Shown here piece by piece: positions 2,137 through 40,295 of a DNA stretch of 64,000 nucleotides. The notes beneath the pieces were generated by a model. It made no database searches, was not told the DNA's origin, and worked only from the letters and a program-made list of their open reading frames with translations. Position 1 is the first letter of the stretch; every line of letters starts with the position of its first letter. This stretch comes from Lingula anatina (Eukaryota; Animalia; Brachiopoda), in the NCBI GenBank assembly GCA_051362555.1, contig CM120643.1, forward strand, positions 1,364,001-1,428,000, written 5' to 3'. Both the position numbers and the translations under genes were made by a program.

Positions 2137-2725
2137 CTTTAGCCTCCAGTGGCACAGTCAGAATTTTGTCGTAGTCATCGCTGGAATACATTGATGACAG
2201 TGACAGCAGGACGTGCTTGAGGGCATCAAAATCTTTCTGAAAGTCTGTGTCAGTGATGGCAAACGGTATTTCATGCAACAGCTGATTGCGGTAGGTCTTC
2301 ACTCTACCAATGTTTGCCTCTATGGAGGTGTCGGAAGCTGGTGGGTTTTCCCATTTAGCATGAGGGTTCAGGTTGGTGATGTTTCTTAATAAAACAACTG
2401 CAAGTGTAATATCTAAATTCTGCGTTGTCACAGTTGTTGAAGGGGTCCCAGAGGGGTAAAGAAGTTTCCTTTCTGTCCAGTTCATTACCTTTCCCGTTCT
2501 CAACAGAGTAAAGGTATCTTTGACTTGTTGATTGTCAAGTACGTCAAAAAGTTTGTCAGTTTTACTGGGATCAAACAGTCCCGGATAAGCTGCTTGTAGC
2601 TGAGTCCTGAGAACTTCTTGAAGCACGTTAGTTGCACGGTCTAAGAGCAGCTGCATGCGGAAATAATTTTCTTTTTCATTTCTTGGGATTTCAGAGAGCA
2701 TTCCCACTGCCGTTGCCATGGTCAT
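2137..2725 (-). CDS. Exon encoding a DZIP3/hRUL138-like HEPN domain; the gene probably continues leftwards
   Basis: ENYFRMQLLL, LLYPS, LDITLAVVLLRNI, PPASDTSIEANIGRVKTYRNQLLH (RxxxxH). TAG acceptor immediately before the ATG at 2725 and a phase-1 GTAATT donor after 2137. Confidence 0.8.
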
Positions 2726-3336: not shown

Positions 3337-3403
<67 letters not shown>

Positions 3404-7142: not shown

Positions 7143-7231
7143 CATGTCTTTTGTTTATTTATTTATTTATTAATTTTAATTGTGTACAAATGCTCCGTAC
7201 TGTTGAGCACTCTGTTCCACATTCACGCTTG

Positions 7232-9983: not shown

Positions 9984-9985
9984 TA

Positions 9986-12168: not shown

Positions 12169-13557
12169 ATGGCTTCTCTGTGTGGAAGGACTGTGTGGTT
12201 GAAAGGGTTAAACAAGAAGTGTGCAAGGAAAGATATTGAAAGGATGTTATACAAAGAAGGTTTTGAGTATGACCACATTGCATTTCAGGGAAGATGTGCT
12301 GCTTTAGTGTTATTTAAAGAGTGCATTTCCGCGGAACAATTCATTGACCACGCTGACGCGGGACTGTACATAAAAGGTACTAAAGTTAAGGCATCGTCTC
12401 CAGCGCCGACAGAGGAGATGTTTATGGTGAGATTATTCGGGTTTACAGGTGACGAAGAATTAACCAAAGCGCAGGAAGCTCCAAAGGCCTCGCAAAGGGG
12501 TACGCGACCTAAAATTTCGAGTACTTGTTTACATGGTCCCAGATCGATATCTTCCGAGGATGACGGAGAAGTCGCGGTCTCAGATAAAATTTCGAATCTT
12601 CCGTATACATGCACTGAAAAGACTGATGTTTCTATTCATTCTGTTGGACCTCCTAGAATTACCTTGTTTTCGGGAGAAAGCGGCAAGGGCGAAGTCACAT
12701 ATAATCAGTGGAGGTTTGAAGTGATAGCATTACTAGGTGATCGTGTTTTTTCCGAACCGATTATTTTACAAGCAATCCGTAAGTCAGTTCGAGGATCAGC
12801 AGCCGATGCTTTAATGCATTGCGGGGAAGGAGCTTCTGTCAATACAATATTGCAGAAGTTTGACAGTATTTTTGGAGACGTGGTACCCGTAGATGTTGCA
12901 TGGGAAAAGTTTTACTCAGCAAGCCAATACTCTAATGAAAAAGTTGTTAATTGGGCTTCTCGTTTAGAAGCATATTTTGATACAATTAGTAGAGTAGATC
13001 CGGAAGTTAGGGAAGGAAAAAAACGTGATAGAATTTTACGGTCGAAATTTTTCTCTGGATTGTTTTCAGTCAACGTTAAGCATGCATTGAGGCATCATTA
13101 CCATTCCGGAGAAACTTTTCAGGAATTGATGGTAAGTGCACGTGTGGCAGAATTAGAATTTTCAGGCTCCCGTGAAACTTCCTCATACCAAGGTAAGCCT
13201 CAGTCTGATGTTTCCGTAGACTTGATGAAAAAAGTAGATATGTTAGATTCTCGCATATCAGATTTAGAGCACTCTGATCCAAATGACAGTTCTCAACGGA
13301 AAAATCGTGTTTATGAAGACAAAGATGAAAATTTCTCTGTCTTAGAAATGAATAGGAAATTAGATTTGTTGGTGTCGGGCATGGAAAAAATCGGCCGTCG
13401 GGTAAGTGATTTGGAGGAAAAAATGAGTGAGTCACGGAACAGAAATGCAAAGCCAGTTGTTTGCTTTAAGTGTAATCAGGAAGGACATATTTCTTCCAGG
13501 TGCCCTTTAAACGCACAAGGGTCGTCGATTCCGGGGCCCAGACCCTCGACCCAGTAA
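12169..13557 (+). CDS. gag: Gag (PNMA-like capsid, N-terminal RRM-like region, CCHC knuckle), 462 aa
   Basis: LFSG..TYNQWRFEV, IRKSVRGSAAD, KFDSIFG, CFKCNQEGHISSRC. Confidence 0.92.
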   Translation: MASLCGRTVWLKGLNKKCARKDIERMLYKEGFEYDHIAFQGRCAALVLFKECISAEQFIDHADAGLYIKGTKVKASSPAPTEEMFMVRLFGFTGDEELTKAQEAPKASQRGTRPKISSTCLHGPRSISSEDDGEVAVSDKISNLPYTCTEKTDVSIHSVGPPRITLFSGESGKGEVTYNQWRFEVIALLGDRVFSEPIILQAIRKSVRGSAADALMHCGEGASVNTILQKFDSIFGDVVPVDVAWEKFYSASQYSNEKVVNWASRLEAYFDTISRVDPEVREGKKRDRILRSKFFSGLFSVNVKHALRHHYHSGETFQELMVSARVAELEFSGSRETSSYQGKPQSDVSVDLMKKVDMLDSRISDLEHSDPNDSSQRKNRVYEDKDENFSVLEMNRKLDLLVSGMEKIGRRVSDLEEKMSESRNRNAKPVVCFKCNQEGHISSRCPLNAQGSSIPGPRPSTQ

Positions 13558-17267: not shown

Positions 17268-17390
17268 CTTAAAGCTTTGATTAATTTAGTGTCATATTTT
17301 AATAAAAACTAGATCATTGTTGTATAGTGTTATTATTATTTGTGGAGTGAATGAAATGTACGGAGACATTTCTTTGAGAAGGGGGGTGAA

Positions 17391-17774
17391 TGTAGCCGTA
17401 TGAATGTATTTTCTTCACTCGTGTTCGTCTTTTGTTTTGTCACGTGGGCGTCATCTTACTCTCTCATTCCCATTGGTCATCTTTCCCGCCTTTCGTCGCT
17501 TATAAATATCGTCGCCGCCTTTTTCTGTCATTCTTCTATTGTCTCATCGCTCTTTATATATTTACAGGTACGTGGTCAATAGTTTAATTCTTTTATGAAT
17601 ATTATCATTATTATTATTATTATACTTATTATATATTAAGATTATAGCTATTAATAACATTATTATGATGATCGCACATTCTTCTATTGTCTCATCGCTC
17701 TTTATATATTTACAGCAAGATGGTATGGAATAAATAAGAACAAAGAGAAATAGACTTTGTTGTGAACCGTTGCA
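17391..17774 (+). repeat. 3' LTR
   Basis: Direct repeat of 9600-9983, preceded by the polypurine tract GAGAAGGGGGGTGAA (17376-17390). Confidence 0.95.
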
Positions 17775-19409: not shown

Positions 19410-22020
19410 TGACTGAGGTTAAATGGAAGTTAAATACCATGGAGAAAGCTTTTCCAATTTTTCATAGAACAGGCACAGTTCCCTATGCATTAAAATGCAG
19501 TAGAAAGGGAACTAAGCAGGAATCACTTATCTTACAGTATGGAATGCAAGAAAAACGATCGCATCGGGTAAATTGCAAATACTATATACCAACTTGCAGT
19601 GACAAAACCTGACTTTCAACCATTTAACCACATGAAGTGAACCATAAAATCCAAATTGAAGTAGCAAATATCATATTTGCCTACACTGAATAGAGCCAGT
19701 GTTAACAATAACGGGACCAACATCCATTTTGTGGCCGCTACCCCCAATATGCAGTCATGACATGGGGACTCCATTCCTAGGACTACCATTTCTGTCACAC
19801 CGGCTAAATTTAACCAATTTCAAGGTCACATTTAGATTGCCAGTGTATGACTTCCTATTCAAGTTCAATAGTAACTATGGACCTATCTCTGCCAGTTATA
19901 AGGGACCCACACTTCCTTTACTAGTCATTAACCTGTACTGCACTCATCATTATGATTTCCGGACGTCTATTTTCTAGACTATGATTTTATTTTTAACCAG
20001 GATGCTAGTTACATTTTGCACAGTCATATAATATAGGACCAAAATTAGCGACAAATATATACCACAGCGTCACTGCCACACCAGGCCTGCCACCCTGCTT
20101 CAACCCCTTACTGCTGAGTGCCAAGCAGAGTGTCAGCAGGTACCGCTTATAAAGGATTGATATGTCCCAGGACGGGTTTGAACCCACGTCTTCCTGCTCC
20201 GGAGGCGGACACTCTAACCACAAGGCCATCCAGTCGGTTTATGTACAGTAATGAAATACACAGGTAAATGTCATATTATTAAAACTGAATATGGATAATA
20301 CATGTAACTGCACTTTCACTGGCTTGAGGTTATTTTTCTACTTTTCCTTTTGCCTTGTACACTCCATGTATTTCTAGAAGAGGGTCATCATCCACCCATC
20401 GCCTTATACAGTGTACCTTCTACGGGATTAATGGTTGGTATCCGCTAGGTATTCACAAATATACTATGATATCTATCTATATTAGAATCAGCCAGGGCAT
20501 ACCTGTAGATATCTAGTCATAAGCAATATGGGGTCCTGGTAGAGAGTTACATGACACTTCTAAAACACTCTTCCTAATATAAAGGAATCACGCCTGTAAT
20601 CCAGTTAATGGACACATTAATGTATAACCGCCCTTGATCAACTTACCGAAATGTCTTCTTGTGCAATTTGTCGGTACAGTTCCGATATCGAAAACCTCAG
20701 ATAATTTGGAATTTATTTCCCCCTCTTCCTAATGCTGTCTCTCTTAGATTTGACGGGCTCGTTAACTGCGCAACTTGTAGTAACAGCTAAGTTAAAAGCA
20801 AAGTTAAAAATAACTAACAAAACCGTACATTGGACTGCAAGCGTTTTATTGCTTCTCGAAAAACACAAACACAAAGAAGTACTGGTACGTATGCTCTGTG
20901 CTTAGCGGAGCACGTAATGGAAACAGCCTTTTAATAAAAACCAAGTTTATGTACAGACGCAGTTCGATGAAAGGGGGTTCTCTGTTTTTACCTGTTTGAT
21001 TCATTTACTGGTAGCTGCCGTCGCGTACTGGTATATTAAAATTGTTTGTTTGACTCTTTGTCCCACGGATCTTTAGAAAACACCATCTCAGCGGTGGTAA
21101 AATCACAATGAAAGCACACTTTCATGTCATTCATATAGGCACAATGTACTCATACATTCTATATTTGCTTGCTTACTTAAAAGAACAATGAAAACTGCAG
21201 AGAATGAATGATAGTATACATAGGCTAGCTACTCACTCTAGATCGAACTTGCCAAAAGCCTATTGATCTTGTAACAGTTTACATAAACTTGTGGCCTCTT
21301 ACATAGACTTGTAAATACTTCACACTGATAACTTATAATTTTACTGATTTTGTGCTTTTGCTGGTACTGTGATGATTTTAAAGCAGAACTGCATGTAATG
21401 ATATTGCTAACTGAGACTAGCATACTGAATAATTAAGAATGTGAAAATAAAGTTAAACTAATGGGCTTGAGAAGGCTTGTTCGTCGTGACACACGCCTAA
21501 AGTTTAATGCGCTAAAAACACGTGTTCTTATAAAAATTAATTTAACAAAGGACCGGGCAAATATGTGTGGCAATTATTTGTCGTTATACCGTCTTTTCTT
21601 TAAACATACGGGAGCCCCGTGTAGCGTCCTCCGTGAATCTGTAGGGCAGAATACACCATAATAGACGTCACCATGCATTCACGGACTGTTACAGACGACT
21701 GTATAATGCTGAGATAAAAAAAGTGTTTTATTTTTTTCAATTTTCCCGGTATTCTTTGTAAGTTGCTAAGGTTATAATGGTGTCAACTAGCTGGCTAGGA
21801 TGTAAACTACTGCCTATTTTTTCAGGACCAGGCACAGGTGTCGAGCAGTGCGAGACCTCTGACGGCGGGAGCTACTGACTATGAGCGGTGCAGCGGTTTG
21901 TTTACAAACAAGAGGGGGTGCACGTGTTCAAGAACTGTTGGTAAGAAAACAAGCAATTCGTTTAAAATTTAAAAAAAAATGAGAAAATGTCCCAAAAAGT
22001 ACTTGTTTTATCCGAATTAT
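19410..22020 (+). repeat. Segmental duplication: copy of ~3035-3300 plus ~7273-9420
   Basis: Long collinear, highly similar direct match seen by eye. The first copy is interrupted by the PLE. Confidence 0.92.
20075..20238 (-). mobile_element. tRNA-derived SINE (copy 2, inside the duplicated segment)
   Basis: A box TGGCCTTGTGGTTAG and B box GGTTCAAACCC; homologous to 7505-7659. Confidence 0.65.
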
Positions 22021-22997
22021 TATGTATATTATTGGACGACCAAAATTTGGCTAGCAAATTTATACGATTTTTAATCTATTGATTCATTTTAATTGTATAG
22101 TTAACCTCAGTAAGTGATATCAGGAGGAAGGAAACATAACTCACAGCAGCTATTTGTTATCAGCTCTACGGGGCTAAATTTGGTAGACTGCTTCATATGC
22201 AATTGATTCAGATTTAGAAATAATTATATAATAGCAATGCCCATCTCACATTAAAACTGCATTTAGACCCCTTAGTGAAAAAGATATGTTAACTTTCTTT
22301 GTGATTATTCAACTTGTCAATTAGTTGACATGGTCCAGCCATATCAAGATATTGTGTTAACTTAGCTGATACACATAATATACAAATAAACTTGCTAGAA
22401 CACCACAGTAATGATGGAGACATTAAATAACACGTGTTCACAGCTGAGACTATGATTTAATCCTAAATTAATGGAGCGATCATAGGATGTAGCTTAAATG
22501 CTACAGAAAATCAAAATTAGATATGCAGCTATGCAAGTCTACATGCAATAAAGACTAAGTTTATACAAAAATTATAATTCAGTAGTAAGTAATAATAATA
22601 TTGTAAAAATGACATAATAAGCCTATTTATCTGTTAAAAGACAGCTTGGATTTGGACATTTTTGTGATTGAAAATCCATTACCTAATCAAAACACATTTT
22701 TCTTGTTTTTATAGAGTAATCTGCCGTTTTCCATAGCTTGTAAATATACAATATCATGTATAAATGTAATATACTTGACAAGGAATTATCACAAAAAGAG
22801 AAAGAGTGACAGTACACAGGTACGTATCTGAAACCAATATAATGAATGGTATTCTCACATGTATATCCTGTCACAATAGGAAGAAATAAATGAACATGCA
22901 TTTAATCATCTAGATTTGTCAAGCGTCTCAATATGAAAAGACAAATTGGCGAAGGAGGACAACTTGTCTGATAGGATTGTATACATATCCATTGTGT

Positions 22998-25900
22998 TCA
23001 CCCAGGAAACTTCTTAGTTTCTCCATCTTTTACGTAGAAGCCTGGCCAGAAATACACGTACTTCGTTAGCGTGCATCTTGTTATTTCTGAAACCTGTCGG
23101 CAGCCGTCTTGAGTTGTCATCTGGGACACACTCCCGTTCACCTTGAAGATAAACAATTACTAGGTAACATATCAACACGGAGAACATGTATATGAAAATC
23201 AATATATTTGTTCAAAATATGACATTTTTAAGATTTGTATTTTTGCCCTCTTTTAGAGGCAATATGTGAATTGAGAAACATTGGCAGATTACTGGTAGAT
23301 TAAAAACTCCCTTCCCTTTATATTCAACACGCACGAGATGATCATTTCTCTCTCCACAAGGAGTCCTCTCTCTGAACAAAGACATCAGAGGAGTCTACTA
23401 GTGGTATATACAATCTTATGGGCAAAGCTTTACGTAAGTTTACCGCGTCAATGACAGTCGTGTATAAAGCTGTCTAGCTGTTATGGTTTCTTACAAGGAC
23501 ATGTCACTTAAACCTTTTCCAGATCTAGCGGTACACTTGCCTGGACCGGTACAATTAGATATTGACGGTTTTAATAGACTGGCTGAAATGTAAGAGAGTC
23601 CCCGCGCGACATGGTCACTAACAGAACAGCTATATAAATTCATTCATTTATGATATATATTGTCATGCTATGTAGTGACAATGCTTGGCAAAGCACATTT
23701 AGGCTTATGACACTCTGTGTAAAAACCCTCTTTAGATAAATGTTATGATAATAAATTTTACCAGTTATCTTATATTTTTTCATAACTTACATGTATACCC
23801 CAGAATTTTTTCATTTATATGAAGACCTTACTTATGTTGATGTTCATGCTCTGTTTCCTATATAACCAGTGCACAGAACAAGGAATTGATGTGCCATCTT
23901 CTCTTTCATGTTGAAACATTTCATTAACTAATGTTTTTATTTTTCTTTCGATTTCTACATGTACATATAAAGGAACAATCCCCATTTCCCATTCAAAAAT
24001 TTTTTTTCGGTTTTTGTTCTTTCTGAAATGCTACGCATGTTCTGAGTTTAAGATAAAAACATTTTATTCGCAATTTTCCACATTCACTGTTTTCAGTATC
24101 AACATTTTGATTGGTTCAGAAAGTTGCTCTATTAATAAAAAAGCTGAGCAATTTTTGAAACTTAGAATCACCACATTTTCTCTTATATCAAATCTACAAA
24201 AATGTTTAATTCTCCTATCAAAGCATCTAATAAAGTTACCTAAACATGTTTAGCCATCAGCCATATTTCAGCGGAATACATCTTGTTTCAGCATTTATTA
24301 TTAAGACTTTATTTTGGACCAAATCAATGATACCCTAGACAATACAAATATCCTTTTAAGAGTCGTAATTATAAATATATCCCTAAAATTTAGAACCGCT
24401 CAAATTGGATCAATCCAGTTAAGCATTCCGCTATTTAATAGACCTGACCAAGTTTTGTTATTCGTGCCGGGAATTTAAGTCAAACGTCGCTGGTGTTCTT
24501 GCAGATTCGGCAGGTAGACAGCAATGTATGGGAAGCCTGATTGCGTCGGTGTTGAAACGCAATCTGATTGCATCCTGCATCATGCACATCTTTGATTTCT
24601 AAACTGCCTAAAATCTCCGATACACCCGGATGTGATGTTGATAGAGACGGCGGTCACCCTTTGTTTTTATTTTTGATTCCCCTGTTTACAAATCAACAAC
24701 AGATAAATCTCTATTCTCTACTCTTATAAAATGATATACTGTTGTAATGCGTGATTACCTGTGTCAATATATCAAGTAGATGGGTGTCACATGCTCTTTC
24801 CGAGAGCTCTCTCACCAGACTCTGAATGAACCACGTGCCATGTGTAGGAGATCGCCAAGACTTGTCACCTGAAACGTCAATTCAGCAAACCTCAGTTTGA
24901 CGACCGGATATCAAACCGTTAAAGATGTTGGTGCTTTAACAGAAGATTGACTGTTATACCTTTCCAGTTATACTTATTTCACATGTCTTTTGTGATGGAT
25001 TCTTGTCGACCAAGAGAAAGTATCAATAGTGGAAACCGCTGAAAAAGAACAAGCAGACTTCACAATCTTACCTGTGGTCGTTGAAGTAACTAATATCATA
25101 TCGGCCTTTTCTGCTATTTTGCTGTCTTCGGTATTTGAGGAAGTATTTTGTGGCTTTGTTGTCATTTGCTTGGGTTTCGTTTTTACATCTGACGCACTTT
25201 CATCCTCACCTTCGGTGAAATAAAGGATAATTGTTAAAACTTAGACAATGACATGTCAATGAAGTATAAAGCAGCGATTCCCAAGTTGTAATTGAAAAAA
25301 ATATTTTTACTTTATAACGGCCAAAATTGAACAACACATCGCATGAAATACACAAACGAGCTATATTTTGACAGAGCAGTATCAACCAACTATATATGTA
25401 AAAATAATAATAGAAACGCCCTCCGTTCGTATAAGAGGACAAAGTACAGTATCTATTACTATACAGCATTATAGCTTAAAACATCAGAGCAGAAAACAGG
25501 GAATCAATTTAACCTCTCACTCTTTACTCATGAAATTAAAACTTGTTTCACAAAGTGTGGTTCACACCAATGCCCCATGTGGAAGATGGACACTTACGAC
25601 TGGGACTCTGACACGCAGATATGAAGAACATCTTGGGGCAACCTTTCAGCGCAGGACACTTGGAGGCCTCAAAGTGTGCCAGCATTTGGTCATACCCTAT
25701 ATGATAACCATCAGTGCCTATCACCGTGTTCTCTCCACCATGACTCAGGATCACCATGATGAAGGAAGAGTAAGCACTGTGATCAGTTCTAGCTTCACGT
25801 TCGGCTAGTTGATTGATACCCTGTATAATGCAATGTTTGATCAATTCAGGTTAACGACAGTACACTTTGATACTATTATAATGTCGAAAAGAAATTCATT

Positions 25901-26707
25901 TTTCTGATCTCATCAGCGAGATCAGCGTTTGTAATTCTCTGAGGGAAGAGTCCTGTCATCATAATGAATTAGGAACAGCCGGCGTCTTGGGATTTTTTAA
26001 ACATAATCAAAGCATAAATTATTCAAATAATTTCACCCTTAACCCATAACCACAGATGAAATTGCGCGAGTTATCATATATTTAATGGCAGAAAGAGTTA
26101 ATATGTTACCATCACATAGTTTATAGCTGATATATTACCGACTCTATCTGTTAAAATATGCTCTATCTTTTAAAATATGCGACAGACTAAGTGAACATTT
26201 AAATTCGATCAACAAACCCCAGCAGTCATGTTGTCATGCCTGGACACCAGGTAATGTAGCTGCTGAAATAAACTTTCCAGACGTTTAACATCAATCTCTG
26301 TGCCTTCTCTGTCGGGGTGATAGTTATTGTCAAAGCTGACATTGTTGATGATCACAGCTCTACCTCTCCACTCTGTGTAGTTTTTGTAGACCTGCAATAT
26401 TCAAAAGGGTTGTTGACAATTTAAGTGTAATCTTGCACTGCTATTGCCTCAGTACATGCTTCTCTTGGTTTGGTGCACTAACAAGATAAAGTGTGAAACA
26501 TTCAGTTCGTGTTGCAATAAATGTCTTTTTCATGACAAAGCTACTGTATTATTGAACATTATATACGGTAACAGATACACCTGCATATAAAAATAAAACA
26601 GAATAAAACGGGACCACTAACATTTTTATGATCGAATGCCTTCTTCTGGAAGAGGTCAACTGAGCAAGGTTGGACTTTGACCTCGGCCAAATCCTCAGTG
26701 CTTGAGC
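22998..26707 (-). CDS. Caspase (peptidase C14A) domain exons, p20 + linker + p10
   Basis: p20: RGRAVIINN, DREGTEIDVKRLESLF, FIMVILSHG, CPALKGCPKMFFISACQS. p10: ADMILVTSTTTG, SWRSPTHGTWFIQSL, HLLDILTQ/VNGSVS, RQVSEITRCTLTKYVYFWPG. The last two exons are absent from the ORF track and were translated by hand. Confidence 0.92.
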
Positions 26708-29700
26708 CTACAATTATAAAGTATCCTCCAATGAGAAGGTTGGTGAGTTATTATGTGCCATGATTAGTTGCGCCTAATGTTAGACCAGTGTTAAGAATTT
26801 GGTAAAAGTGTTTCATGAACCAAAAAAACTAGTTTTCCTTGACTGCCTATAGCATTCTGGAAGAACTGTTAAGATTAAAGATCAAACTAAGTGGACCATA
26901 CCATAATACATAAAGACCCGATCTACAGGGGGTGGGGTGGGGGTGACAAAATTATTGCACCACCTGCATGAATAGGGAGCTATGTGACTGGTAGGACCCG
27001 TTCGTAAAAAGTGCTTTGCGGTTTATTGGTCACGTAACAAGGGATGGATTTTCATCCATGCGCACAATAAGAGGTGACATCGTAGGTTTAACGCCCTTCT
27101 GGATGTCAAGTTTCTATCATGGTGAAAAAACAGGAGCTCAAAAAATGAAGATAACAAAGAAATTGTTTCCCTGAGACTGGAGGGTTTAGCTGTATCCCAG
27201 AAAGCCGCCATATGTGGTATGTTTGGTCAACTTGTATACAGGGTTTGCAGAAGGATGGGGGACACTGGTGATGTCCATAAAACAACAAAAAGCAGACTAC
27301 TGGCGTCTTTTTATGCTCCCAAGGTTCTGGAAATTTGAACCGTGCTGTGAATTAGCTTTACGGTGTTTGAGTTAAAGGTACATATGAACCAAGTGTCGGT
27401 GAAGCGTGGATTTCCAGTAGTGTATATAAACCACTTCTACTAGTTTCTTATACAACTTAGACATACCAAAATTAGACATACCAAGGAATAAACCAAATAA
27501 AACGTTCTATCAACCATAAAAGAGCTTTAAACTGCTCCTTTCTTTAAACTTTTGGTCGTAAATTTAACCTACTTACCTGACCTACTTATCTGCCCCATAG
27601 ATATACAGCATAGAAAGCTAGCAGGAAAATCCGTTCAAATATAGTTTTGTGGTAATATTAAACGATGTCTTTTGGTATTTCTCTATATTTACTATCTTAA
27701 ACTATATAATGGCATTTGGTCGGCTTTTGTGGGAAAAATTGACTTCGTATGCATCTTTAAGCAAAATTAACGTTTAAAGAAGGCTCCATGCTACAGGAAT
27801 TATCACCATTATTGGGATCACGTGGCCATCCTACAAAATATTAATACTGACATAATAAATAAGCACTGGTCTGTTAACTGGTCGTGAATATACTAACTTG
27901 ACATTACCAGAAACTATTGGAAAAACCTTACAAATCCAGCTGTTCTTCACCTTATAGCAAACGGATACAGTACTCTTGTCAACCCCTGTACTTTGTTCAA
28001 TTATTAATGGTGCATTTTTTTAACCAACATATTATGACTGTAGTTAAAATATTCCAATGTCAGTGACCACGATCAATACCAGATCAGTACGTACTTGATG
28101 TTTGGGCAGAAGCAGTTTCTAGTGACTGAATTTGGGGCAGCCCTTTTTCTTTTTCTTCTGTCCTACCTGGTTTGTAAATGCGAGATAATCACACTTAATA
28201 GGCGTAAAATAATACTTTTATATCATTGACACTAAACTCTTGGAAACACACTTACACATACAAATGAAACAATTGAACAATTGATTTCGAGCTCATATAT
28301 ATTTAGCAATATCATCGATGTATAAATGTAAAATCACAATTTCATTAACTCGTGGAAAAGGTGAACCTTATGTGTTGTGTAATAGAATTAAACGCTGTTT
28401 TATTGTAGTGACTAAACGCAAGTTGGGATGAATTATCTTGACTTGTGTTACCTGTAACATATAATCTTAATTTTAATCTTGCTTATTAACAACGCCAGAG
28501 TTCAGCACACAACCTTACCTTGCTCATGAATGAGAATGTTGCTTTCTGAAAGACGCATTTGAGCCACGAGTGGGAAATTCTCCACTGCTTCTTCTCCTAA
28601 AATTATTGACATCCATATTCTTTCATTTGTGTATGTTGCAGAGTGTATAACAGTCGATATTTCAAGGTAAAAAAAGCTAGCTACATCTAGTTAAGTTTAA
28701 TGTCACATATCACCAAAATTTAAACTTTTATTTTGTCCACTTACGGCAACAGCAGGTGTTATGTTTTTGAACTGCTTACCTGAGAACCAAACACGGTATG
28801 GCCTCAAATCAATCGGTACTTCCGCATTCTCTACAAATACACAGATGACATCCCTTTCTAAAACGGTTTCTCTTTTAATATGAATCTTGTGCCTGCCATC
28901 GTTTACCCTGATATAGTAGCCAAAGTGCATTCTAGGGCAGTATGTCTTCTGTAGATAGGACAACTCGTCTTCAACTGTTTGTCGTGCTTTAAAGTATATG
29001 TGAGGCTTTGGTGGGCCGGCAGCGTTCGTTATCACCAGTTCAATATCCTTTTCTGCAGTAAAGAGATAGAGCACAGATGTTTTGTCTTCCAGGCGGAAGG
29101 AGGCGCGGTCAAACCCAACAACTGGGATGTCATTCTCAACCGTTTGAGCTTCGTATGACCCTAAAAGACGGATGATCAAACGGTGAAATAACCCGGGGGG
29201 AAAGAAACCGTGAGGGAATGAGATAAGCAGAGGTATTTGACGATCTGTCTCAGAGAACGCAACATTGGTCCTGGCAATGGATTTTAGCATGCTAGGCACG
29301 ACGAATGTCCTTTTACTTTCCTTTGCATATGGTAGCACTAGCTTTTCAACAGACTGAGGTATTTCTCTCATCAAGTCGAATTTTTCCATAAGAAGAATGA
29401 TATACTCTTTCATCCAGGACAAGTTGACGTTTTCCAAATATTCATCAAACACCTCCTCGTTTAGCAACCCTCTTCGGAGATCGTCCTTCAGGTGATCCAG
29501 GCGATCCTTTCCTGATTTACTGATGGGCGGGGTCATGATGGCAGAAAACAGATCTGCTAACCAATGTGGATTCAGTATGACGACATTTTCAAGTCTATCC
29601 ACTTTAAAGTGAAGGAAGTCTCCCAGACGGTGATGGTAAGGAATGAACATTTCATCTAACTCAGCGTCAGGGATTCCAACTAAGCGCGCCATTTCACGCA

Positions 29701-30046
29701 GTTCTTTAACATCTATGATTGGTCTTTCCTCACTCTTCTTTGCCAAATCCATTTCTAGCTGAATCCAGCTCACTGGATGCATTTGAAAGGCAGCCTCATT
29801 GTCTCTGCTAAAACCACAAAGATGCTCGATCGTTTCTTTTATTTCACAAAACTCCCCATCTTCGGCCAAGTTGCTTATTGCAAAGTAGCGGTAGACGTGG
29901 TCTTTGAGTTCCTGCTTATCGTTGAGATAATTCCTGAGATCACCAAAGATCTCCTCAGCATCGTCCTAGAAAGATTATTGAGTACGGTTCAAGCTTTTGT
30001 TATGTAGCCTGTATGTATTCTTTTTTTTTTTTTGTGAATAAAACGG

Positions 30047-30140
<94 letters not shown>

Positions 30141-33100
30141 CTTCTTTTTTTATGGTCAGTTCAATATATTAATTTGGGCCATTACACGACGGGTTTCAGA
30201 AACTTTTGTTGACATTTTTTCCACTTGGAGTCTGGTTGGATTAAACGCCTTGTGCCGTGATATGCAGTGAGCATGCAATAATGCAGTTAAAATGTATGTT
30301 CTTAATGGGAATAAAATAACTGTGATCAGAAAAAAACCTACCTGCGAATCCAGTTTGTCCTTATGAGTTCCAATAATCAAAACGTGTGGTATTGTTTTCT
30401 TGCCTTCTTCCTTCAAGTTTACAGCTGTGTGCATATGGATAGAGTTCAACCAAAATATTATAAGCTCTGAAACACATAAAAGAGGCTTTGGTAAAATGAT
30501 GTCTGTTTATCACAAAATATTTTTCCCTCATTTTGGGTAACAAATACAGTATAAACAATAACATACTTCCTTTGGCTTATTATATGATAGAGCACATAGG
30601 TTACAGACAATATTTGAACAGGCACAGTTAGAAATGATTATCGTCACTCTTTGCACAAAACTCTTTATCTATTCCTTTACATGCGTTCTTTTGGGTAACA
30701 GATCAATCTTCAGAATTCAGTTGAGAAATTAATGAACATTTACATATATGCCATCTTACGAATGACGTCGTAATTTGGGGTAAAAACTGAAAATCGGTGT
30801 CTTAAATTTCTCCATTACCTGAGCACCAAAGATCATCGTTTCAGCGCCTTTATAATGACACTATTTAGTACTCCAAAACCCCACCAGCATTTTTTCTTAT
30901 ATGTCCTAGTTCAGAATTTATCTTTGAGATGCAAAAAATGTCTTTGTTTAATGGCAATCTGTAATTAGGAGCCCATAACTCCATCGCAAAAATATTTAAA
31001 CCAAAATAACGGCACGGGATTGTAGCCCTAACACTACATTCTGCCAATTTTTGTGATAAAATCTTGTTTAGGGATGAAGTTAAGCCCCATACGGATTGCT
31101 AACTAATCTAAAAAAGAAAGGTGTTAAATTGACGATTAAAGCTTTGAGCTGCCTATGCTTATATATTGCAACGAGAAATATAAACGCCGGTATTTTATAT
31201 TTCCGAGGGTTATATTATCGTTTTAAATCAGCTCAAAGATACATGGATTATTGAATAATTAGATGTAGGGAAAACGTTTTTTATATCTGGACGATAATAA
31301 AGGGTTACAATACCCATAAACATGCATATACGTAAATGTAAACTACATCATACCTTTCACCGTCTTCTCTCCTCTGTATACGGGAATTTTGGTTTCGAGG
31401 TTTACATCAAGTCGGAACACCAACAAGTAGATGTTCTGCTCTGAGAGGAACGTCTGGTGCGTGGAGTAATAGACATCTTGACCAGCAAAATCCCAAATTG
31501 TAATCTGTTTCTCAGGTTTGACAGGTTCTCCTTGAGCAAGTGACTGTATTTTATCCAGAAGTCGCCGATCGATATGCTGGCTAAGGATTCCTTCTGCAAA
31601 GAATAAACTCAGGTTAATTCTGAAAGTAGCGGGATTATAAATACTACGCATTTTATGCATCTAGACATTGAAGATTATATCACGTTGGCAGTTTGAATCA
31701 AAAGTTGACACTCACGTCTTTTTTTCATAGTTTATATTTGTAGTTTACAACATCCCTACATTGGATCATACTAATAAGATTAGACGCAACAGTTGTCAAC
31801 TTTTTATTTGCAGTATTGGATTAAAAACATTTTATTTGAAGCACGGCTAGATGAGCAACATGTGCATACATAATATATCGTGCGATGTGAATGATACACA
31901 TAAACTAAACGTGGACTACTTACCTGATGCTCTGTCAGGTGAGGGATGATGCACACTGCCACCAGGAGGAGCTGCTGTAGAACAAAGAGCACGGTTCAAA
32001 CGAAACTTATTAATAAAGCGTTAAGTAAAATCAAAAGCATTAAAGTTAACAAATAGTATGACCATGTGGTTTGACAGTACGCCTCCGCATCAGGACAAAG
32101 AATCCGGGGATATACCTGTCCTTTACATAGGTTGCTTTAGGTTGTTCTGGGGGAGTAAGGAAGAGTTTCGTCTGGTTTTAGTTGCATTGTAATCAGCTGT
32201 TAAGGATGGACATGTGTACCTTTTTCTGCTTCCACTGTGCGGCTATAAATAGTCTCTCCAAATTCTGGTCGGGAGGCCATCGATGGCGTTTGGTCCGTTT
32301 GGTCTGGATTGCGGAATGTCTCAAGTCTCTGTATTCCTATGACCATATGTTGTACAAACTGGTCTTCTGGGTCATCTGAGGATCGTGAAAACAAAAACGT
32401 ATTCCAATATAGACTTGTCTGAGTAAGAACATGCTGTATCAAGCTACTTTTTTTTAAATTTTGCAACGTTTATAGTATAATCAGTCTGAAATTTACAGTA
32501 ACAGTTTTAGAAAATAGAATATTCATAGTTGTACATTATTTTTGTCTGCATGTCTGTTGTTAAGCCTGATGCATGTCACTGATTATCACACATACACGCA
32601 TCATTCACTGTGAGAATATACCGGTACTTTTGCTGATTTATCCCAAACAGGCGAAAATGTATTTTAAGACCCATGCCTGGGGTTTGCCGAATGGCAGATT
32701 TAGTATTTTTTTTCACATTCAGTTTTTTTTATGTTAGTGATCCACCTAAGTACCATATCTTGTTTACCTTTTCCTTTGACCCAGCAGGATTGACCGGCTT
32801 TGTGGACGATGCACCTATGACGATATATCTTCACGCCACGTGTACACGCGTCTGTTTCCTCGTCATATTCCTCCTGGATGAGGCGCTTGGCAAGATGAGT
32901 CTTCCCCACACCGTAAGGTCCAACGATAGACACTCGCTTTCTGTACACTGGAATCGCACCATTCGCACACAAGCGGAGAAACCCTTTATTAAGTCCTGGT
33001 TATAAACAGTACTAGTAATTAATGATGTTGTTATTTAGTTATAGCATACAAGGGTAAACGTCCGCCACCTACGTAACTTAGATTTTTTTTTTACATTTGA

Positions 33101-34071
33101 ATTTGAACGTCTGCTGTTAGGTCGGATAAGATGATGAGATTTGGTGCAAAATTACATCTTTAAAGCATTTCGCTACTTGTCTTTGTTTAAAAAAGCCAAA
33201 AATAGAAACAATTATGACAGAGGGCCAGAATCGTTTAGGGGTTGCTAAAACCAAACATTTGTCTGGCTAATATGTAGTTGGAAACATGGATTTGTTTTAG
33301 TATGAAATTTTCATGATGTTGAAATATCAAACACTTGAAAATTAACTTTATTTTGGGTAATTTATAGATATAAAAGCTCGACAACATTGCAAGTCCGTTA
33401 TACCTGTTCTGTTTTATCATATTTCATTATCGATTCCCTTTCTTTTTGATATCATTGTATAACACAAACGACAGTGCTTTACACGTTACAATTCATTATG
33501 TCAACAACGTTTGACTTGAAACATCATATTGTTGTAACATGTTTATATCTTATCCATCCCATGGCTTCGAACTTTGCACAAAGGGTTAATAATACGCCTT
33601 AATAATTACCATCTTGGCTGTTGCACACAAGGGATGTTTCGTAATGTACCTATAGTACATAACAAACTTACCAGCTTCGAGAACACCAATCAGTATACTG
33701 CAGACCTTGGTGGCGTCAGAGTATGTGACCCCTTTTATAGATGTAAGTGGAGAAGGGATATTTCGTGTTTGGACGTCTAAATAGATAGGGATGACGTATG
33801 GACTTCGACGGGTTTCTTGGGCCTCGCGCACCACAATGTTCATTACATAACGACACAACTCAGATCTGAAAAAATCATTCGATATGAACAACATAGAGAA
33901 TTCTGATTCTGCCACTGCCTCGTGTATTAAACTGAACAAAGGAGTCCCGAGAGTGAAATCCCGCATTGGCAAGCAGCACCGATACCCTTTGCTTTCTAAA
34001 GCTTGTGTTACTTCCAGTGCAACTGCTTCATCTTCCTCAGAACTGTACATAAACGCATCGTACTTGTACAT
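22998..34071 (-). CDS. Multi-exon TIR-ROC-COR-caspase gene (~1136 aa from the ATG of MYKYDAF)
   Basis: Exons on the minus strand: 34071-33672, 32995-32768, 32375-32220, 31974-31924, 31593-31354, 30466-30342, 29965-28780, 28596-28519, 28166-28095, 26707-26622, 26391-26218, 25820-25598, 25209-25072, 24868-24759, 23141-22998. All introns are GT..AG with matching phases. The total is 3411 nt = 1137 codons ending in TGA. The small linker exons and the true 5' end are less certain. Confidence 0.82.
28780..29965 (-). CDS. End of ROC plus COR domain exon (1186 nt)
   Basis: PVSWIQLE, YHHRLGDFLHF, VVILNPHWL, LLMEKFDL, FVVPSML and FFPPGLFHRLI are characteristic COR motifs. TTCTAG acceptor and GTAAGC donor. 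Confidence 0.9.
30049..30126. repeat. (TA)n microsatellite in the intron before the COR exon
   Basis: Direct inspection. Other (TA)n runs lie at 501-563, 3338-3398 and 7233-7273. Confidence 0.95.
30342..32995 (-). CDS. ROC (Ras of complex proteins) GTPase exons
   Basis: G1 GPYGVGKT, G2 TRGVKI, G3 ITIWDFAGQDVYYSTHQTFL, then IYLLVF, WLNSI and G4 LIIGTHKD. G5 FAISN lies at the start of the next exon. These are typical Roco motifs. Confidence 0.92.
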
Positions 34072-34087
34072 GTCTAATGGTTGTTTA
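33672..34087 (-). CDS. TIR domain exon
   Basis: YDAFMYSSEED (box 1), GYRCCLPMRDFTLG (box 2/BB loop), FISNDFFRSELC, VIPIYL, IPSPL. Polypyrimidine-CAG acceptor at 34088-34090 and GTAAGT donor after 33672. Confidence 0.9.
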
Positions 34088-34970
34088 CTGAAAATAAAAA
34101 AAAAATGAAATAAAAAATCACCAACGATAACAAAGCTGTAGAGAACAATTTGCAATCGAACGTATTTTGATATTGCATCCGCATTTTTCAATTAAACAAA
34201 AACAGTACTACGCATTTTTCAATGACAAGATATTATACAACCAAAACAATTTTCTGTCACTTAAAAGTGAAAATAGACAAAAAATGTACACTGTAACCTT
34301 GGCTGCTCCTTGTTTAGATTTCTGAGGTCCCTCAAGCCAAAGTCAAAATCGTTTATTTCAATGCAGCAAGTTTGCAACAAACATATGTAGTGACGTCATT
34401 TTATTGTAAAGAATAATGAACAACAGACCCCCTTACGTGATCAAAGTATGATTTCAAATATTACACTCTTAAAACTGATCAGTTAAACTTAACCGAAATT
34501 TGACCGAACTGTATGAAAATCAGTTGGCCTTTTAACTAATCCAAACGGTTTACATTTCGGTTACCTTTAATCAATACATTCATTTAGATATATTTACTTC
34601 AGTTGTAACCATTGATATACAGTTGTTTTCAATCAGTCACTGCAGTAACTGACCAAAACAATCTACTGGATTCAGTAATAATCTATACTTATTCATGTTG
34701 AGTGTTGGTAATGTGTAGTTCAAAACAACTGGATTTTAGAATTTGTCATGTCAACTGGTTTGATCGTTTAACTTTCAACCATATCCTCAGTCAGAATTAA
34801 CCTTGTAAACATGTACGTTGTATTTCAACTGCACAAATGCCAGAAATGTTAGAGTCATTCTCTAACGTCTTCTGAATGTTCTGTTGAGCGTGCGGTGAGG
34901 CCACTAAGACGTAGAGAGGATGATACCGCTCCAACCCATTGGGGATGAGAGGCAGGGTATGAACGCCTTA

Positions 34971-35185
34971 GACTGCATTCCCACAGATTTTAAATCGATC
35001 TATCCCCCTGGGGAGTCTCACTAGATCGGTGTCAGCTTAATCGGCTTAAATGTCTGTCCCGCCTACTATAAGCTGCAAGGGGGTAATTAACTATACTGCG
35101 CGCTCGGCTGACAGCAATTTACCGTGACCCCCCAGGGAGTTAGGTCGATCCAGATGGATCGATATAAATCTGTGGGAATGCAGTC
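34971..35185. mobile_element. Harbinger-type MITE
   Basis: TIR GACTGCATTCCCACAGATTT / AAATCTGTGGGAATGCAGTC with TTA on both sides. Confidence 0.8.
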
Positions 35186-36089
35186 TTAGACCGCATTCAC
35201 AACGATTTGAGCCAGGCTTTACAAATCCTGAGACTAAATATGGCGGACGTACATGAAAGGAAAACCGCCTAATCTTTTAATAGTCCGCCTCTCACACGCC
35301 TCCCCACACATCGTCCCTGCGGGGTACAGCCATTTAATCTCGGCTCCGTTCGCCATGCGGAAGCTATAGTGTGTGTCAGATCGCATTACACAGTATCATA
35401 CCCTGAACAAATTTTGAGTGGTGATGCAATGCTTTTCAACACCCGCTGAGAATCGTCACTATCACATCGCGTACTAGGCAAGAGTGGTGTCGCGTCTGAT
35501 ACTGTGTAATGCGATCTGATACACCTTGAAAACGGGTAGTGTGGTCTGATCTACCGGTGAATTCAGGGTCCTTAGGTGCCGAGTCTGTAGTTGGGTAGGC
35601 CTGAGACTGTCTAGGGCAGTCCTGCGCGCGCAGAAACCTTTGTCAAAGATTCACGCTCAACAGCAACTGAGAAATTGGTTACTTAGTGCGATCGACACAA
35701 TGCAGAATAGTTAAATAACCGAGTAACAAGGTCATTCTCCGCTTGTAGAAAGGCAAAATAGTTATAAATAATCAATATTCAACAAGTTTGTAGAATTACA
35801 TTACATGCTTTCTATATTCTTGTCAATTGTCCTCCCTTAGCAAAATTTAAGGCTTCTTGCAAACAGTTGCTGCAAATTTGCAACATATTTGCAAGAGGAA
35901 ATTTACCATGTAAATTAAGTCTCTTGCAAATTTGCTGCAAACTCCCCACAAACTTAATCAGCATGACAAAAGGGAATCTGTCACAGGTTTCTTGCAAATT
36001 TGCTGCAAACTCTCAAGAACCATTCATGCGAATTTGCTGCAAACTCTCCACTACAGTTCTTGCGAATTTGCTGCAAACTCTCCAGAACT

Positions 36090-38124
36090 CAGGGTTCTCC
36101 CCAGGCCTTTATAGCGTATCGGCCCCGATACGCTATTTTTTTTGCCGATACGCTTCTTTCTTTGCCGATACGCTTCTTTGAACCCCGATACCCTTTAAGA
36201 GTGTGTGTGTGACCAATGCCTTTAATGCCTTTATTCCTGACAGTCGCGACGTAAACCGTAAAATAAAAACGACTGTGTGCGTACTTGGATCTCTTGTGTG
36301 CGCGTTAAGTTGTTTATTTTTATTCTGCCTGGCGCAGTAATACAAGTACAACATCTTATGTTGAGGGCGCGGGATCTGCGTACTGACAAGTTTCGAATAT
36401 CAACATCCGCTTATTAGTTTCGTCATCAATGTAATTCTGTGAGATTTGTTTGCTTTGTCTATATTTTTGAAAAATATAATAAAAAGTCAATCCTTCATGT
36501 TATTTTGACTGAAGAATAGTAGCAGTCGTGATCATTTATAAATAAATGTATCCATGCGGCAAGAGAAAATGTCAGAAAAGATGCAACGCTATTTAATACA
36601 TTAGCGCCTGTCCGGGACAGGTAAAAATTCAGCTCGGACAGGTGAAGTTGCAGGGTTGGCTGTCCGACAGACAGGTCATGGTTTATGAGAAATTTGGAGC
36701 AAAAATCTTTTAAAAAATCATTTTTAATGCATACTAACGTCTTTTTGTCTCCTCCTACACGGTACTGAAAAGAATGACCTACTTTTGGCACAAAACACGT
36801 GCAGTCACAAAACGAAGTCTGAGCAAACTTACCGCCAAGTTATGAAAGTGAACACCCTCCAGAACTTCATCAGACAAAATTTATTCACATAACAGGCTCA
36901 CTACTGAATATTTATTTGGTTAAAAATCTACGTGCTCTAGAGAGAAAGACCGTTACAGAAACGACACAAGTACTATGCTGGTTACAAAGCCAGATTGAAC
37001 TAGATGAACTGGCTATATCTAGTTCGTTGTCCAGGCAACATACTGCCTGTCAATCAAATACGTTGTATGCTATCTACTCACTACAGAACGTGAAATCTTT
37101 GGGACTGAAGATCTTGTTGAAATATTGTTTATTGGCCAAAATATAACCTGAAATTTTGTATGATGTTTTCTTTAATGACTTTATCATCACCTATATTATT
37201 TACAGTTAAAAATTTAGTGCTGGAATATGATAAATTAACATTGCTGTTATATACCAGTGTGGTATTGATGTAAGGAAGAAATTAGTAATAACAAATATGA
37301 GAATTTAAATAAAAAGGGGAACTTTTTTATACTGATTTTATTTAACTCATATATTTAAGAAAATCAAACACAAGATAACCTCTAAAAAGTTAAATTGTTA
37401 ACATAAATATAAGTAAAGTATTATAAGATGAATATTCTTTAATTTTTCATTGAACTTTTGAATATTTTAATAAAATTAATCTAACAGTACCCCCTCCCCA
37501 CCTGCCACTCAGGGTATTTATATTTTGCTTTGGTTAAACTTCATGTGAATTTGTTATCAAATTGCAGATTTACAATTAGCAGACCCTGTACCCAAAATCC
37601 TAGGAGAAGCCCTGATTGAAACTTTATAATGTTAAATCAGACTTAAATGCAAGATTAAATCTTCAGGAGTTTACAAGTATGAAAAAACAACTTTTTATCT
37701 GAAAATAAATCCACTTTAAGGTGCATTTTCCGGCTCATTTAATTTAATGTCTTGGCAATAAATGCATTAAATGTATGACTACACATATTTATTTACAAAG
37801 TTCAATGGTATGAATAGAAAAAATATTAGTTTTGTTGGACAGGTTGGATTGAAATTCGGACAGGTACTCATAAAAGTTAGTGTCTAGCCCTGATTTTCCC
37901 CGCAAAATTTGGTCCTGCAAGTGGGCTATGTCGTAACGATTTAATGACAGCTTCAGATTGCATGGGATTGCACCCTTTTTGCATGAAATAATGAAAGTTT
38001 TTCCTCCGGAGGGCACATCCCCGGACTCCCCCCCCCCCCCCCCCTTTGTGCCTCGCTTCGCGAGCTTCGGTACTCTCGCGTAAAAAAAAATAAGGGCTAT
38101 TTTCAAATCCTGGGGAGAACCCTG
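36090..38124. mobile_element. Non-autonomous hAT-like element nested in the EnSpm subterminal repeats
   Basis: 16-bp TIR CAGGGTTCTCCCCAGG / CCTGGGGAGAACCCTG and a 5-bp duplication GAACT that interrupts the host unit CTCCAGAACTGTTCTTGCG. Confidence 0.8.
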
Positions 38125-40295
38125 GAACTGTTCTTGCGAATTTTCTGCAAATTCACTAGAAGATCTTGCAAATTTGCTGCAAACCCTCCAGAACTGTTCT
38201 TGCGAACACTCTGCAAACTCTTAAGAAATCCTTCTTGCAAATTTGCTGCAAACTCTCCAGAACTGTTCTCGCGAATTTTTCCGGAAACCCCCCCCCCCCA
38301 AAAAAAAAAAAAAAAAAAAAACAAATAAAAAAAAAAAAAAACATTCTTCTGCAGTACCACTATTGCAGTAGACTGACAACTAATATTTAACCCAGTGATT
38401 ATGCTTTTATTTATGCCAGTTCTTTTTTTTAATTAAATCATGTATGCCATATTTGAAATCATGGAGTAGCAAAATTTTATTACTGTATTTTAGCCATATA
38501 GTACAGCTGGCAGAACACATACAGAAAATTATCAAATGAATGAAAAAATAGCACACACACAGAATATCAGTAAGAAACACCATAAACATTTTTCAATATT
38601 TTATTTTAGAAACTTGCACATTTTAATCAAATTAAATCAACATTTGGTAAAGATTGTTCAGATGTCTCTGATATAATGATACAACGTGAATCTGCTTCTG
38701 CATTTTATTCATTGGAAAGAACAGTAACCAAGCTATAAAGGATGCTTTAATTTTTAAGAGGGTTCAACAACTTTATTTACATCCAAGTTTAAAGAAGTCC
38801 GAGTTTAATTATCGAGTCCTTAGTAATATGTCTTAATTCTGTTAACTGGCTTCAATATCTCAATCCTGTTAATGATTCACTGTAATGTATTTTGTGTGTA
38901 TAAGTATATAAGGAGTAGAACTTAGTATAAGAGCTCAGAGTGAGTTTGATCAGTTGAACCGATAGCTAGATAGTCCCTGCTGTCCTAGGAGACTCCAAAT
39001 CTGTCAGCCAGAGAAATAAACATAGAGATCAGGCAGGTTGTAGTTGAACTCTGGAAAACATATCACTGCTGTTGTTTCACCCGCTAGAGAAGTCAGACCA
39101 AATTTCGACTGGGATACAAGCACCATATCACATCTGAAAGACGAGAAAAATAAAACTTGACATTTCTTGTAAAATTTGTTGCACTCACAGGTAGTTTGTC
39201 AAGTAAGCTTCTAGTAGATTCCCTTAATAAATACACCTATATATATATATATATACATATATATGATTTATGTTGTTAAGTAAAACAAAAATAAATTTAG
39301 CAGGCATGGTATAATCTAATCACAGTTAAAAATACTTTTCCTACCTTTTTTAAGGCCCTCTTTGCAGTGTGAATTTTTGCACTCATAGTGTGCTTAATTG
39401 CTGGCCCATCCATTTTCAAGTTGTTAATAACATACACTGAAAGAAAGAGAATTTAAACAATAAATAAAGAAAGCACGACTTCATTTAAAAAACTAAATGA
39501 GACAGATGGGGGGGGGGGGGGGATGGATATGGAGGGCACAGGGTATGCGTGGGGAGATATAGAGGGCACAGGGTTGGATATGGTATGGGTGTGGGGAGAT
39601 ATATAGAGGGCACAGAGTTGGAGATGGTGGGAGTAAGACGGGGAACAGATGATGCACGAGGCACTGAAACACTTTCTTCAACTGCTGCATTACAAGCTGG
39701 CTCTGATTTTTTTCCTTGAATAACATAGGGAAAGCTTTATTAAATTTGAATTTAAGTGCACTGTGTAAAATGTACTTATTATTTGAAAGAGGAAATTACA
39801 ATTTTTTCACCATTTAGTGGAAAAGATATGCAACAGCAATTGCAGGACAATTAACAATATACTTACACTACTACCATTGCTCTGGTTGTCCTTTTTATCT
39901 AAAAAAGTTAAAACATAAAATGTTATTCTACCAAAAAAGTGATGCATTAAGAATATATAGTTATATATATATGAACAGTTCATCATAGGTTGCATGGTTG
40001 TTTGAACTAAAACAAAAAGTGGGGTTCCTGTTATTCAGAAGCAAGGCAACACTGAAACATTTTGGATTCTGTGTTACTATTTAAAAAAAACCCAACAATA
40101 ATTATGGAATTATCAGACATATTAGTTTCACAAAGAAGAGGTAAGTCAGTATGAGGGCGATACACTTAAATTCTTATATTTGTTCAGAAGTCTTTGACAC
40201 TCACTGAAAATACATTTACTCACCTTTCACATATGCCTTCTTTTCCTTCTGACATGCATTTCTGTAATCTAAAATAAAAGGAGAATAGCTTTTAA

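Follow-up and report, generated by a model that had tools for sequence, protein, structure and literature searches.

A predicted Lingula anatina gene joining TIR, ROC-COR, and caspase domains, and its Roco-caspase relatives in other animals

Initiator caspases are activated by dimerization. We describe here a 64,000-nucleotide stretch of the genome of the brachiopod Lingula anatina (GenBank assembly GCA_051362555.1, contig CM120643.1, positions 1,364,001 to 1,428,000; hereafter the window), which carries a minus-strand gene predicted to encode a TIR domain, a ROC-COR GTPase module, and a caspase in one chain. The closest animal precedents in print are a caspase of Owenia fusiformis that has ROC as its pro-domain (CAH1787638.1) and two TIR-caspases of Metaphire vulgaris (Horkan et al., 2024, PMC11463336). 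As in the window protein, ROC or TIR takes the place of CARD or DED in these proteins, which belong to the caspase-Y group; in the accessible part of that paper they appear as species-specific oddities with no mechanism attached, and neither kind has both TIR and ROC-COR. The same source, as far as its text is available, reports molluscs, annelids, and brachiopods to lack APAF-1, which raises the question of how initiator caspases are switched on in these lineages. Its supplement contains none of the three Lingula ROC-COR-caspase accessions considered below.

Similar parts are combined in bacteria and in other animal Rocos. Bacterial counter-invader proteins of the form LRR-AP-GTPase(Roc)-COR carry caspase or TIR effectors (Kaur et al., 2021, PMC8195603), and the Runella gasdermin protease, a Roc-COR-CHAT protein, cleaves gasdermin (Johnson et al., 10.1101/2021.06.07.447441). 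To judge from the available portions of these two accounts, the bacterial systems resemble the window protein in pairing a Roc-COR core with effectors that vary and include caspase-like and TIR domains, but differ from it in the LRR sensor at their front and in that the listed examples are CHAT-type proteases rather than animal C14A caspases; these portions describe no control of the protease by GTP. ROC-COR with TIR has been recorded in Aplysia (PMC9334734) and in a Trichoplax figure legend (PMC4104024); in the excerpts at hand TIR is joined to ROC-COR and immune signaling is proposed, as for the window protein. LRRK2, DAPK1, and the C. tepidum Roco share the ROC-COR tandem and the COR fold with the window protein, which, unlike them, has ∼100 extra residues between G2 and G3.

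Chained by coordinate, the 15 minus-strand exons of the gene (34087–22998) all lie at their assigned positions (Table 1). The 14 introns, 183–1617 nucleotides long, are without exception GT-AG and phase matched, and the spliced chain of 1141 codons, counted from the first acceptor, contains no internal stop. The predicted protein comprises 1136 amino acids, from the ATG at 34071 to the stop at 22998, in the order TIR-ROC-COR-caspase, which bears out the single ∼1136-residue frame that the initial annotation had assembled from scattered open reading frame fragments. Exons 2–9 can be aligned to the independent Lingula RefSeq model XP_013395173.1 (identities of 59/76 in exon 2, 287/395 in exon 7, 19/26 in exon 8, and 22/24 in exon 9, with just 2/17 in exon 4), and exons 5–7 and 11–15 to XP_013401300.1 (45/58 in exon 11, 62/74 in exon 12, and 32/47 in exon 15). 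The exon chain is a real gene and not a product of chance. Because exon 1 opens at a splice acceptor, an upstream exon, probably non-coding, is missing from the model; no upstream coding exon for the TIR was found, and 34100–38500 holds only two consensus-like donors.

Pfam was run exon by exon on nine of the 15 exons, with the linker exons 3, 4, 8–10, and 13 (17–52 codons) outside the scan. It matched TIR_2 in exon 1 (E 9.8e-16, 58.8 bits), Roc in exons 2 (E 4.7e-6) and 5 (E 7.9e-9), COR-A in exon 7 (E 2.2e-21), and Peptidase_C14 in exons 11 (E 1.2e-8), 12 (E 2.4e-14), and 14 (E 1.3e-6). Exons 6 and 15 gave no match in this single-exon scan, and LRR or ANK repeats, a kinase, and a CHAT domain are absent from the matches of the nine exons. 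The structural model of exon 1 has a predicted local distance difference test (pLDDT) score of 66 and its top Foldseek matches are all TIR structures, which indicates a flavodoxin-like TIR fold. As in other Rocos, ROC is followed directly by COR. The ROC motifs GPYGVGKT (G1), WDFAGQ (G3), and THKD (G4) match those of caspase-bearing relatives, the 153 residues from G1 to G3 compare with 135–373 in relatives, and CTRGV and AISN are presumably G2 and G5; the G1, G3, and G4 motifs of the ROC are thus intact. The AlphaFold2 model of the COR (pLDDT 88.6) has the entire C. tepidum Roco COR as its best Foldseek match (E 5.8e-15, template modeling [TM] score 0.60; 0.54–0.60 for the structures 3dpt, 3dpu, and 6hlu) and also matches LRRK1/2. 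The TIR domain and the full Roco module named in the initial annotation are therefore both recovered. The insert between G2 and G3 (exons 3–4, 31924–32375, minus strand) varies in length and repeats among Lingula paralogues, and could possibly be a regulatory or bait loop. An NLR/STAND identity was rejected, as the NACHT and AAA matches on exon 2 are P-loop cross-matches that fall under the cut-offs.

The C-terminal part has the His-Cys dyad of a caspase fold (His959 in SHG, Cys1002; Pfam C14) and keeps both S1 arginines, Arg902 in DREGT and Arg1058 in SWRS. It is joined to COR by a linker of 91 amino acids, compared with 39–96 in five relatives, and the caspase of a paralogue has caspase-8 (E 1.9e-37) and caspase-7 as its best solved matches.

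Considered together, we read the locus as one Lingula TIR-ROC-COR-caspase gene whose product would act as an immune or cell-death trigger complete in itself, with a Roco switch in place of the CARD or DED pro-domain, and we put the probability of this reading at roughly 55%. The reported lack of APAF-1 in brachiopods and the bacterial precedent of the Runella protease also speak for it. At rest, the protein would be a GTP-bound monomer with its tethered caspase inactive. A non-enzymatic TIR would then dock on an activated TIR assembly, or self-associate, and so raise the local concentration; COR-COR dimerization, favored after GTP hydrolysis as in the C. tepidum Roco, could pair two caspases by way of the 91-residue linker; and the caspase dimer would cut its own inter-subunit linker at Asp before Asp-containing targets such as executioner caspases. 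We favor a GTP-bound monomer at rest and a dimer after hydrolysis because the C. tepidum Roco, in the available text of its description, is monomeric with GTP and dimeric when nucleotide-free (10.1101/2023.11.13.566844). The polarity of the GTP-driven COR dimer initially proposed for this protein is thus probably reversed.

Several observations weigh against this reading, and they concern the transcripts, the TIR, the switch, and the caspase. Four RNA runs with the same species label (X11, X12, X14, and X17) were aligned at 88% likeness over 21801–41800. X17 gives a depth per exonic base of ∼6–13 in bins of exons 6–15, linker exons 8–10 included, and of 2–4 for exons 2–4, with 0.03–0.08 in two intron bins, and a ROC-COR-linker-caspase transcript from the window gene or a close relative is likely. 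On the TIR exon, the depth of this run is 0–0.4. X11, X12, and X14 place almost no reads on the caspase exons. The exon 5 reads of X17 differ by several percent from the window and those of X11 and X14 carry changes matching the paralogue XP_023933246.1, so the transcript may be that of a paralogue and not of the window locus itself. None of the 15 joints listed (there are 67 more) is a junction of the gene model, in an alignment dominated by repeats at 34.5–35.8 kb. In the RNA evidence that the initial annotation had called for, exon coverage thus runs from ROC to caspase in one of the four runs, with the TIR exon nearly bare. With no homologous model for the TIR exon and no junction read among the joints listed, the TIR-ROC junction is supported by splice signals and phase.

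These transcript data would also fit a gene in which shorter products dominate, namely TIR alone, TIR-ROC-COR without the caspase, or a ROC-COR-caspase that starts in exon 3 and lacks the P-loop, with the full fusion rare or absent. Read-through of donor 1 meets a stop after 28 amino acids, a poly(A)-like hexamer lies at +319, and the Met of exon 3 is where three paralogue models in RefSeq start. The paralogue XP_013395173.1 goes no further than exon 9, and since read-through of donor 9 in the window gene gives the identical STY-stop, a caspase-less isoform is plausible; a transcript end between COR and caspase, which the initial annotation had named as evidence for separate genes, is in this way found in part, in a paralogue. 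However, donor 1 is a perfect GTAAGT at the end of the TIR, its phase is the one required by exon 2, which lacks a Met of its own, and the 676-nucleotide intron 1 holds no other candidate exon. The depth of X17 is even over exons 6–15, and the poly(A)-like hexamers say little because they occur in 9 of the 14 introns. Libraries primed with oligo-dT are depleted in 5′ ends, and a paralogue with a different first exon may be the source of the reads. We consider dominance of the shorter products decidedly unlikely.

The TIR itself is degenerate at two positions. At the BB-loop Pro position it has Leu41 (RDFTLG, compared with RDFLPG, RDFKPG, and RDATPG in aligned solved TIRs), and so lacks the Pro-Gly of TLR/MyD88-type adaptors. 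In helix C, Val76 occupies the place of the catalytic Glu that oyster TIR-STING and TLR15 have in the alignment. Animal TIR activity requires this Glu, according to the accessible part of a recent study (bioRxiv 10.64898/2026.04.20.719644), and the window TIR is therefore not expected to be an NADase; a role as an NAD+-cleaving enzyme was rejected. With both positions altered, the recruitment role first ascribed to the TIR is not supported as it was written. We therefore weighed the alternative that the TIR is bait, an integrated decoy, such that a pathogen protein aimed at host TIRs binds or modifies it, trips ROC-COR, and fires the caspase. Degeneration at both the Glu and the BB-loop Pro would suit a decoy, as would the want of a repeat sensor in the window protein, which also counts against our preferred reading. 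Host-like domains (SH2, Med25, TAZ, Creb-binding, EH, Macro, PARP14-type RRM, OTU, and Bcl-2) occupy the N-terminal slot in related invertebrate Rocos, and first exons turn over inside one subfamily. But such variety is by itself no proof of decoy function, there is no known ligand, and the literature searched yielded nothing relevant on Roco decoys. MAL, which likewise lacks the Glu in our alignment, is a working adaptor despite this. On balance a decoy seems unlikely.

For the switch, the COR is only ∼14% identical to that of the C. tepidum Roco, whose nucleotide cycle is known, and the literature searched yielded no report of activity for an animal Roco-caspase. In the caspase, Ser replaces both the S1 Gln and the Gly that follows the catalytic motif, so that the active-site pentapeptide reads SACQS in place of QACxG. 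Gln283 is, in the part of the source available, one of three S1 residues (PMC2064784). The domain is consequently filed as a caspase-like variant and not as a canonical caspase, and the “complete caspase” of the initial annotation holds for the His, the Cys, and both arginines but not for the pentapeptide. Loss of an S1 residue might leave a caspase that is weak or shifted in specificity, in which case the protein would be a regulator, whether a cFLIP-like partner or a scaffold, rather than a killer. Against this, the four other residues named are kept, Ser occupies the same position in other caspases of the compared set (SACRG), and SACQS recurs in two other Lingula ROC-COR-caspase genes. One of these, XP_013412607.1, is identical to the window protein at just 103 of 395 positions in the exon 7 region, which suggests long retention under selection and not decay. 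We regard the regulator alternative as very unlikely and retain the TIR-ROC-COR-caspase trigger.

The window gene belongs to a Lingula subfamily whose ends are exchanged around a constant core. Among the nine matches to the COR exon, the five top-ranking longer relatives are Lingula anatina RefSeq proteins of 56–73% identity, the two nearest Lingula models being 62–73% identical over this exon. In a ROC-COR tree (FastTree; 141 rows, with five redundant or concatenated models left out, no topology test, and long-branch warnings), the window protein falls in a 7-row Lingula subfamily with a support of 100. These relatives have TIR or HEPN in front of ROC-COR and caspase, HEPN, or nothing behind it, and comprise HEPN-ROC-COR (XP_013395173.1), ROC-COR-caspase (XP_013401300.1), ROC-COR-HEPN (two genes), and ROC-COR alone. 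XP_013401300.1 (which lacks G1 as annotated), XP_013412607.1, XP_013407220.1, and XP_013395173.1 share the core and its junction points with the window gene, but none has a TIR and all are uncharacterized predictions. The paralogues diverge immediately past WFS, at the phase-1 donor that ends exon 7, and the HEPN of XP_013395173.1 meets ROC at the exact point where the TIR exon does in the window gene. Introns 1–5 and 7–9 are phase 1 throughout, which would permit exon swapping; exon shuffling has reportedly been studied in the ROCO genes of brown algae. No close relative of the TIR exon was found at E ≤ 0.001 among 261 candidates of 243–2000 amino acids, a search that short TIR-only proteins lie outside, nor among the retrieved relatives compared exon by exon, and the TIR exon is probably a recent graft.

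A second first exon of this kind lies 20 kb downstream. Like the TIR exon, the HEPN exon at 2137–2725 runs from an acceptor through an ATG to a phase-1 donor where the domain ends, and it is the probable start of a tandem Roco paralogue that continues past the window edge; the remaining window beyond it holds no ROC exon.

A profile built from three Lingula proteins matched 18,303 representatives at E ≤ 0.001, and the analysis covered the 150 best. Pfam was run on 91 of these 150, and 171 relatives were searched with local profiles for TIR, COR, caspase, and HEPN, whose seeds came in part from the same proteins. COR followed by caspase occurs in 9 of the 171, as well as in a longer Exaiptasia locus model and one concatenated amphioxus model; the cases include three other Lingula genes, Owenia fusiformis CAH1786849.1, Exaiptasia KXJ13106.1/XP_020902336.1, and Branchiostoma XP_035660786.1. 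The COR-caspase link first noted in the window gene is thus common to nine other protein models. The caspase lies ahead of COR in three relatives, from amphioxus and two freshwater mussels, and also in a single older model from Lingula. TIR follows COR in 11 of the 171 relatives, none of which has a caspase, whereas the window TIR stands in front. TIR, COR, and caspase together were found in none of the 171, the window model being alone in this, which, with the best 150 of 18,303 matches covered, is weak evidence that the triple fusion is unique. No paper on a TIR-ROC-COR-caspase fusion was found in the literature searched. The initial claim that no characterized protein has this architecture therefore stands for the triple fusion but not for its parts, as ROC-caspase, TIR-caspase, and ROC-COR-TIR are in print and bacterial Roc-COR-CHAT has been characterized, according to the accessible portions of the papers cited above. 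As far as searched, the three-part combination is new, assembled from known pairwise fusions in a shuffling family.

On the ROC-COR tree the caspase label requires six changes, at least five of them forced by starred branches, so Roco-caspase fusion probably occurred several times; a single origin for all such fusions is not favored. In a caspase tree of 42 rows, the Lingula and Owenia fused caspases form a group with a Shimodaira-Hasegawa-like approximate likelihood ratio test (SH-aLRT) value of 94, which joins a Lingula PARP-caspase cluster at 86. This cluster contains a sequence placed in caspase-Y by Horkan et al. in the available part of their paper (PMC11463336), the sole published caspase-Y member in the tree, represented through its 90% cluster. 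At full length, over 1351 columns, Owenia CAH1786849.1 shares 40% identity with Lingula XP_013407220.1, so that one fusion or more is probably older than the divergence of annelids and brachiopods. The ROC-COR-caspase portion at the C terminus probably has an old origin within lophotrochozoans. CAH1786849.1 has an N-terminal Bcl-2 domain, and hence the order Bcl-2-ROC-COR-caspase; the corresponding part of XP_013407220.1 can be aligned to it but has no Pfam match, and both caspases have the canonical QACQG. From their sequences, the pair is predicted to hold a conserved apoptosis regulator, a switch, and a protease in a single chain. Beyond the host-like domains listed above, invertebrate Rocos carry Neuralized, NHL, GT4, ANK, LRR, and DED at the N terminus, and their C-terminal effectors comprise Death, CARD, DED, TIR, HEPN, OTU, trypsin, GT4, and caspase.

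Table 1. Exons of the TIR-ROC-COR-caspase gene and the neighboring HEPN exon, in window coordinates
Feature	Position	Strand	Basis and remarks
Exon 1: TIR domain	33672..34087	-	ATG 34071; Pfam, model; phase-1 donor GTAAGT
Exon 2: ROC N-terminal helix, G1 GPYGVGKT, G2 region CTRGV	32768..32995	-	Lys165 at 32903-32901; Pfam
Exon 3: start of variable insert between G2 and G3	32220..32375	-	carries the Met that opens three RefSeq paralogue models
Exon 4: 17-codon phase-1/1 exon, variable insert	31924..31974	-	exon chain, alignment
Exon 5: ROC G3 WDFAGQ	31354..31593	-	Pfam, motif
Exon 6: ROC G4 GTHKD	30342..30466	-	motif, alignment
Exon 7: ROC end (G5 region AISN) and entire COR	28780..29965	-	Pfam for COR-A, fold for the second subdomain; last residues WFS, phase-1 donor
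Exon 8: COR-caspase linker	28519..28596	-	alignment to XP_013395173.1
Exon 9: linker	28095..28166	-	donor read-through to STY-stop, equal to C terminus of XP_013395173.1
Exon 10: linker, leading into caspase	26622..26707	-	alignment
Exon 11: caspase large subunit, S1 Arg902 (caspase-1 Arg179 equivalent)	26218..26391	-	Pfam, alignment
Exon 12: His959 (SHG, 25742-25740), Cys1002 (SACQS, 25613-25611), Ser1000 replacing S1 Gln	25598..25820	-	Pfam, alignment
Exon 13: inter-subunit linker; Asp1009, Asp1014, and Asp1035 as putative self-cleavage sites	25072..25209	-	translation
Exon 14: small subunit, S1 Arg1058 (SWRS; caspase-1 Arg341 equivalent)	24759..24868	-	Pfam, alignment
Exon 15: small-subunit end and stop codon	22998..23141	-	alignment to XP_013401300.1
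HEPN_DZIP3 first coding exon, separate gene	2137..2725	-	Pfam; 78% identical to HEPN of XP_013395173.1

Elsewhere in the window, a long terminal repeat (LTR) retrotransposon occupies 9593–17683 on the plus strand, with terminal repeats that agree at 99% across 300 nucleotides or more, a gag-like open reading frame at 12169–13554, and an open pol frame at 13476–17264 (protease, reverse transcriptase, RNase H, and integrase); it is predicted to be a recent insertion. A large inverted duplication of fragmented retroelement-like sequence, which we take to be Penelope-like, lies at 3393–7191, with arms 97–99% complementary and no Pfam match for the two fragments tested. Between the 3′ end of the caspase gene and the HEPN exon there is also a direct duplication of ∼2 kb (7327–9380 and 19887–21975), 89–97% identical and 12.6 kb apart. 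On the other side of the gene, a spliced, expressed minus-strand transcript at ∼38500–40270 (joints 39133/39345, 39436/39867, and 39898/40224) is taken as a separate gene because it is deep in runs where the TIR-ROC-COR-caspase gene is not. It stands head-to-head with a plus-strand gene starting near 41055, has no obvious protein product, and is possibly non-coding; Rfam gave no match within the window. A 520-codon open frame on the plus strand (61984–63543) has no Pfam match.

The ROC-COR-caspase family stands even if the TIR junction fails, and we consider the broader animal family of Roco-caspases a more valuable lead than the triple fusion. A Roco-caspase fusion would be a one-protein case of scaffold-free caspase activation, to which the TIR version would add a direct link from Toll-type signaling to a protease, and its self-cleavage would offer Roco biochemistry a simple read-out on the disputed question of whether the dimer belongs to the GTP or the GDP state. 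More tentatively, and with rather more doubt than confidence, these data may point to a widespread and so far overlooked class of apoptosome-free initiator caspases in animals, switched by an LRRK2-type GTPase, conserved from annelids to brachiopods and including the Bcl-2-ROC-COR-caspase of Owenia and Lingula. In such proteins the exchangeable first exons, whether TIR, HEPN, Bcl-2, or another host-like domain, would serve as baits, and in lineages that lost APAF-1 the family would be to GTPases what NLRs with integrated decoys are in plants.

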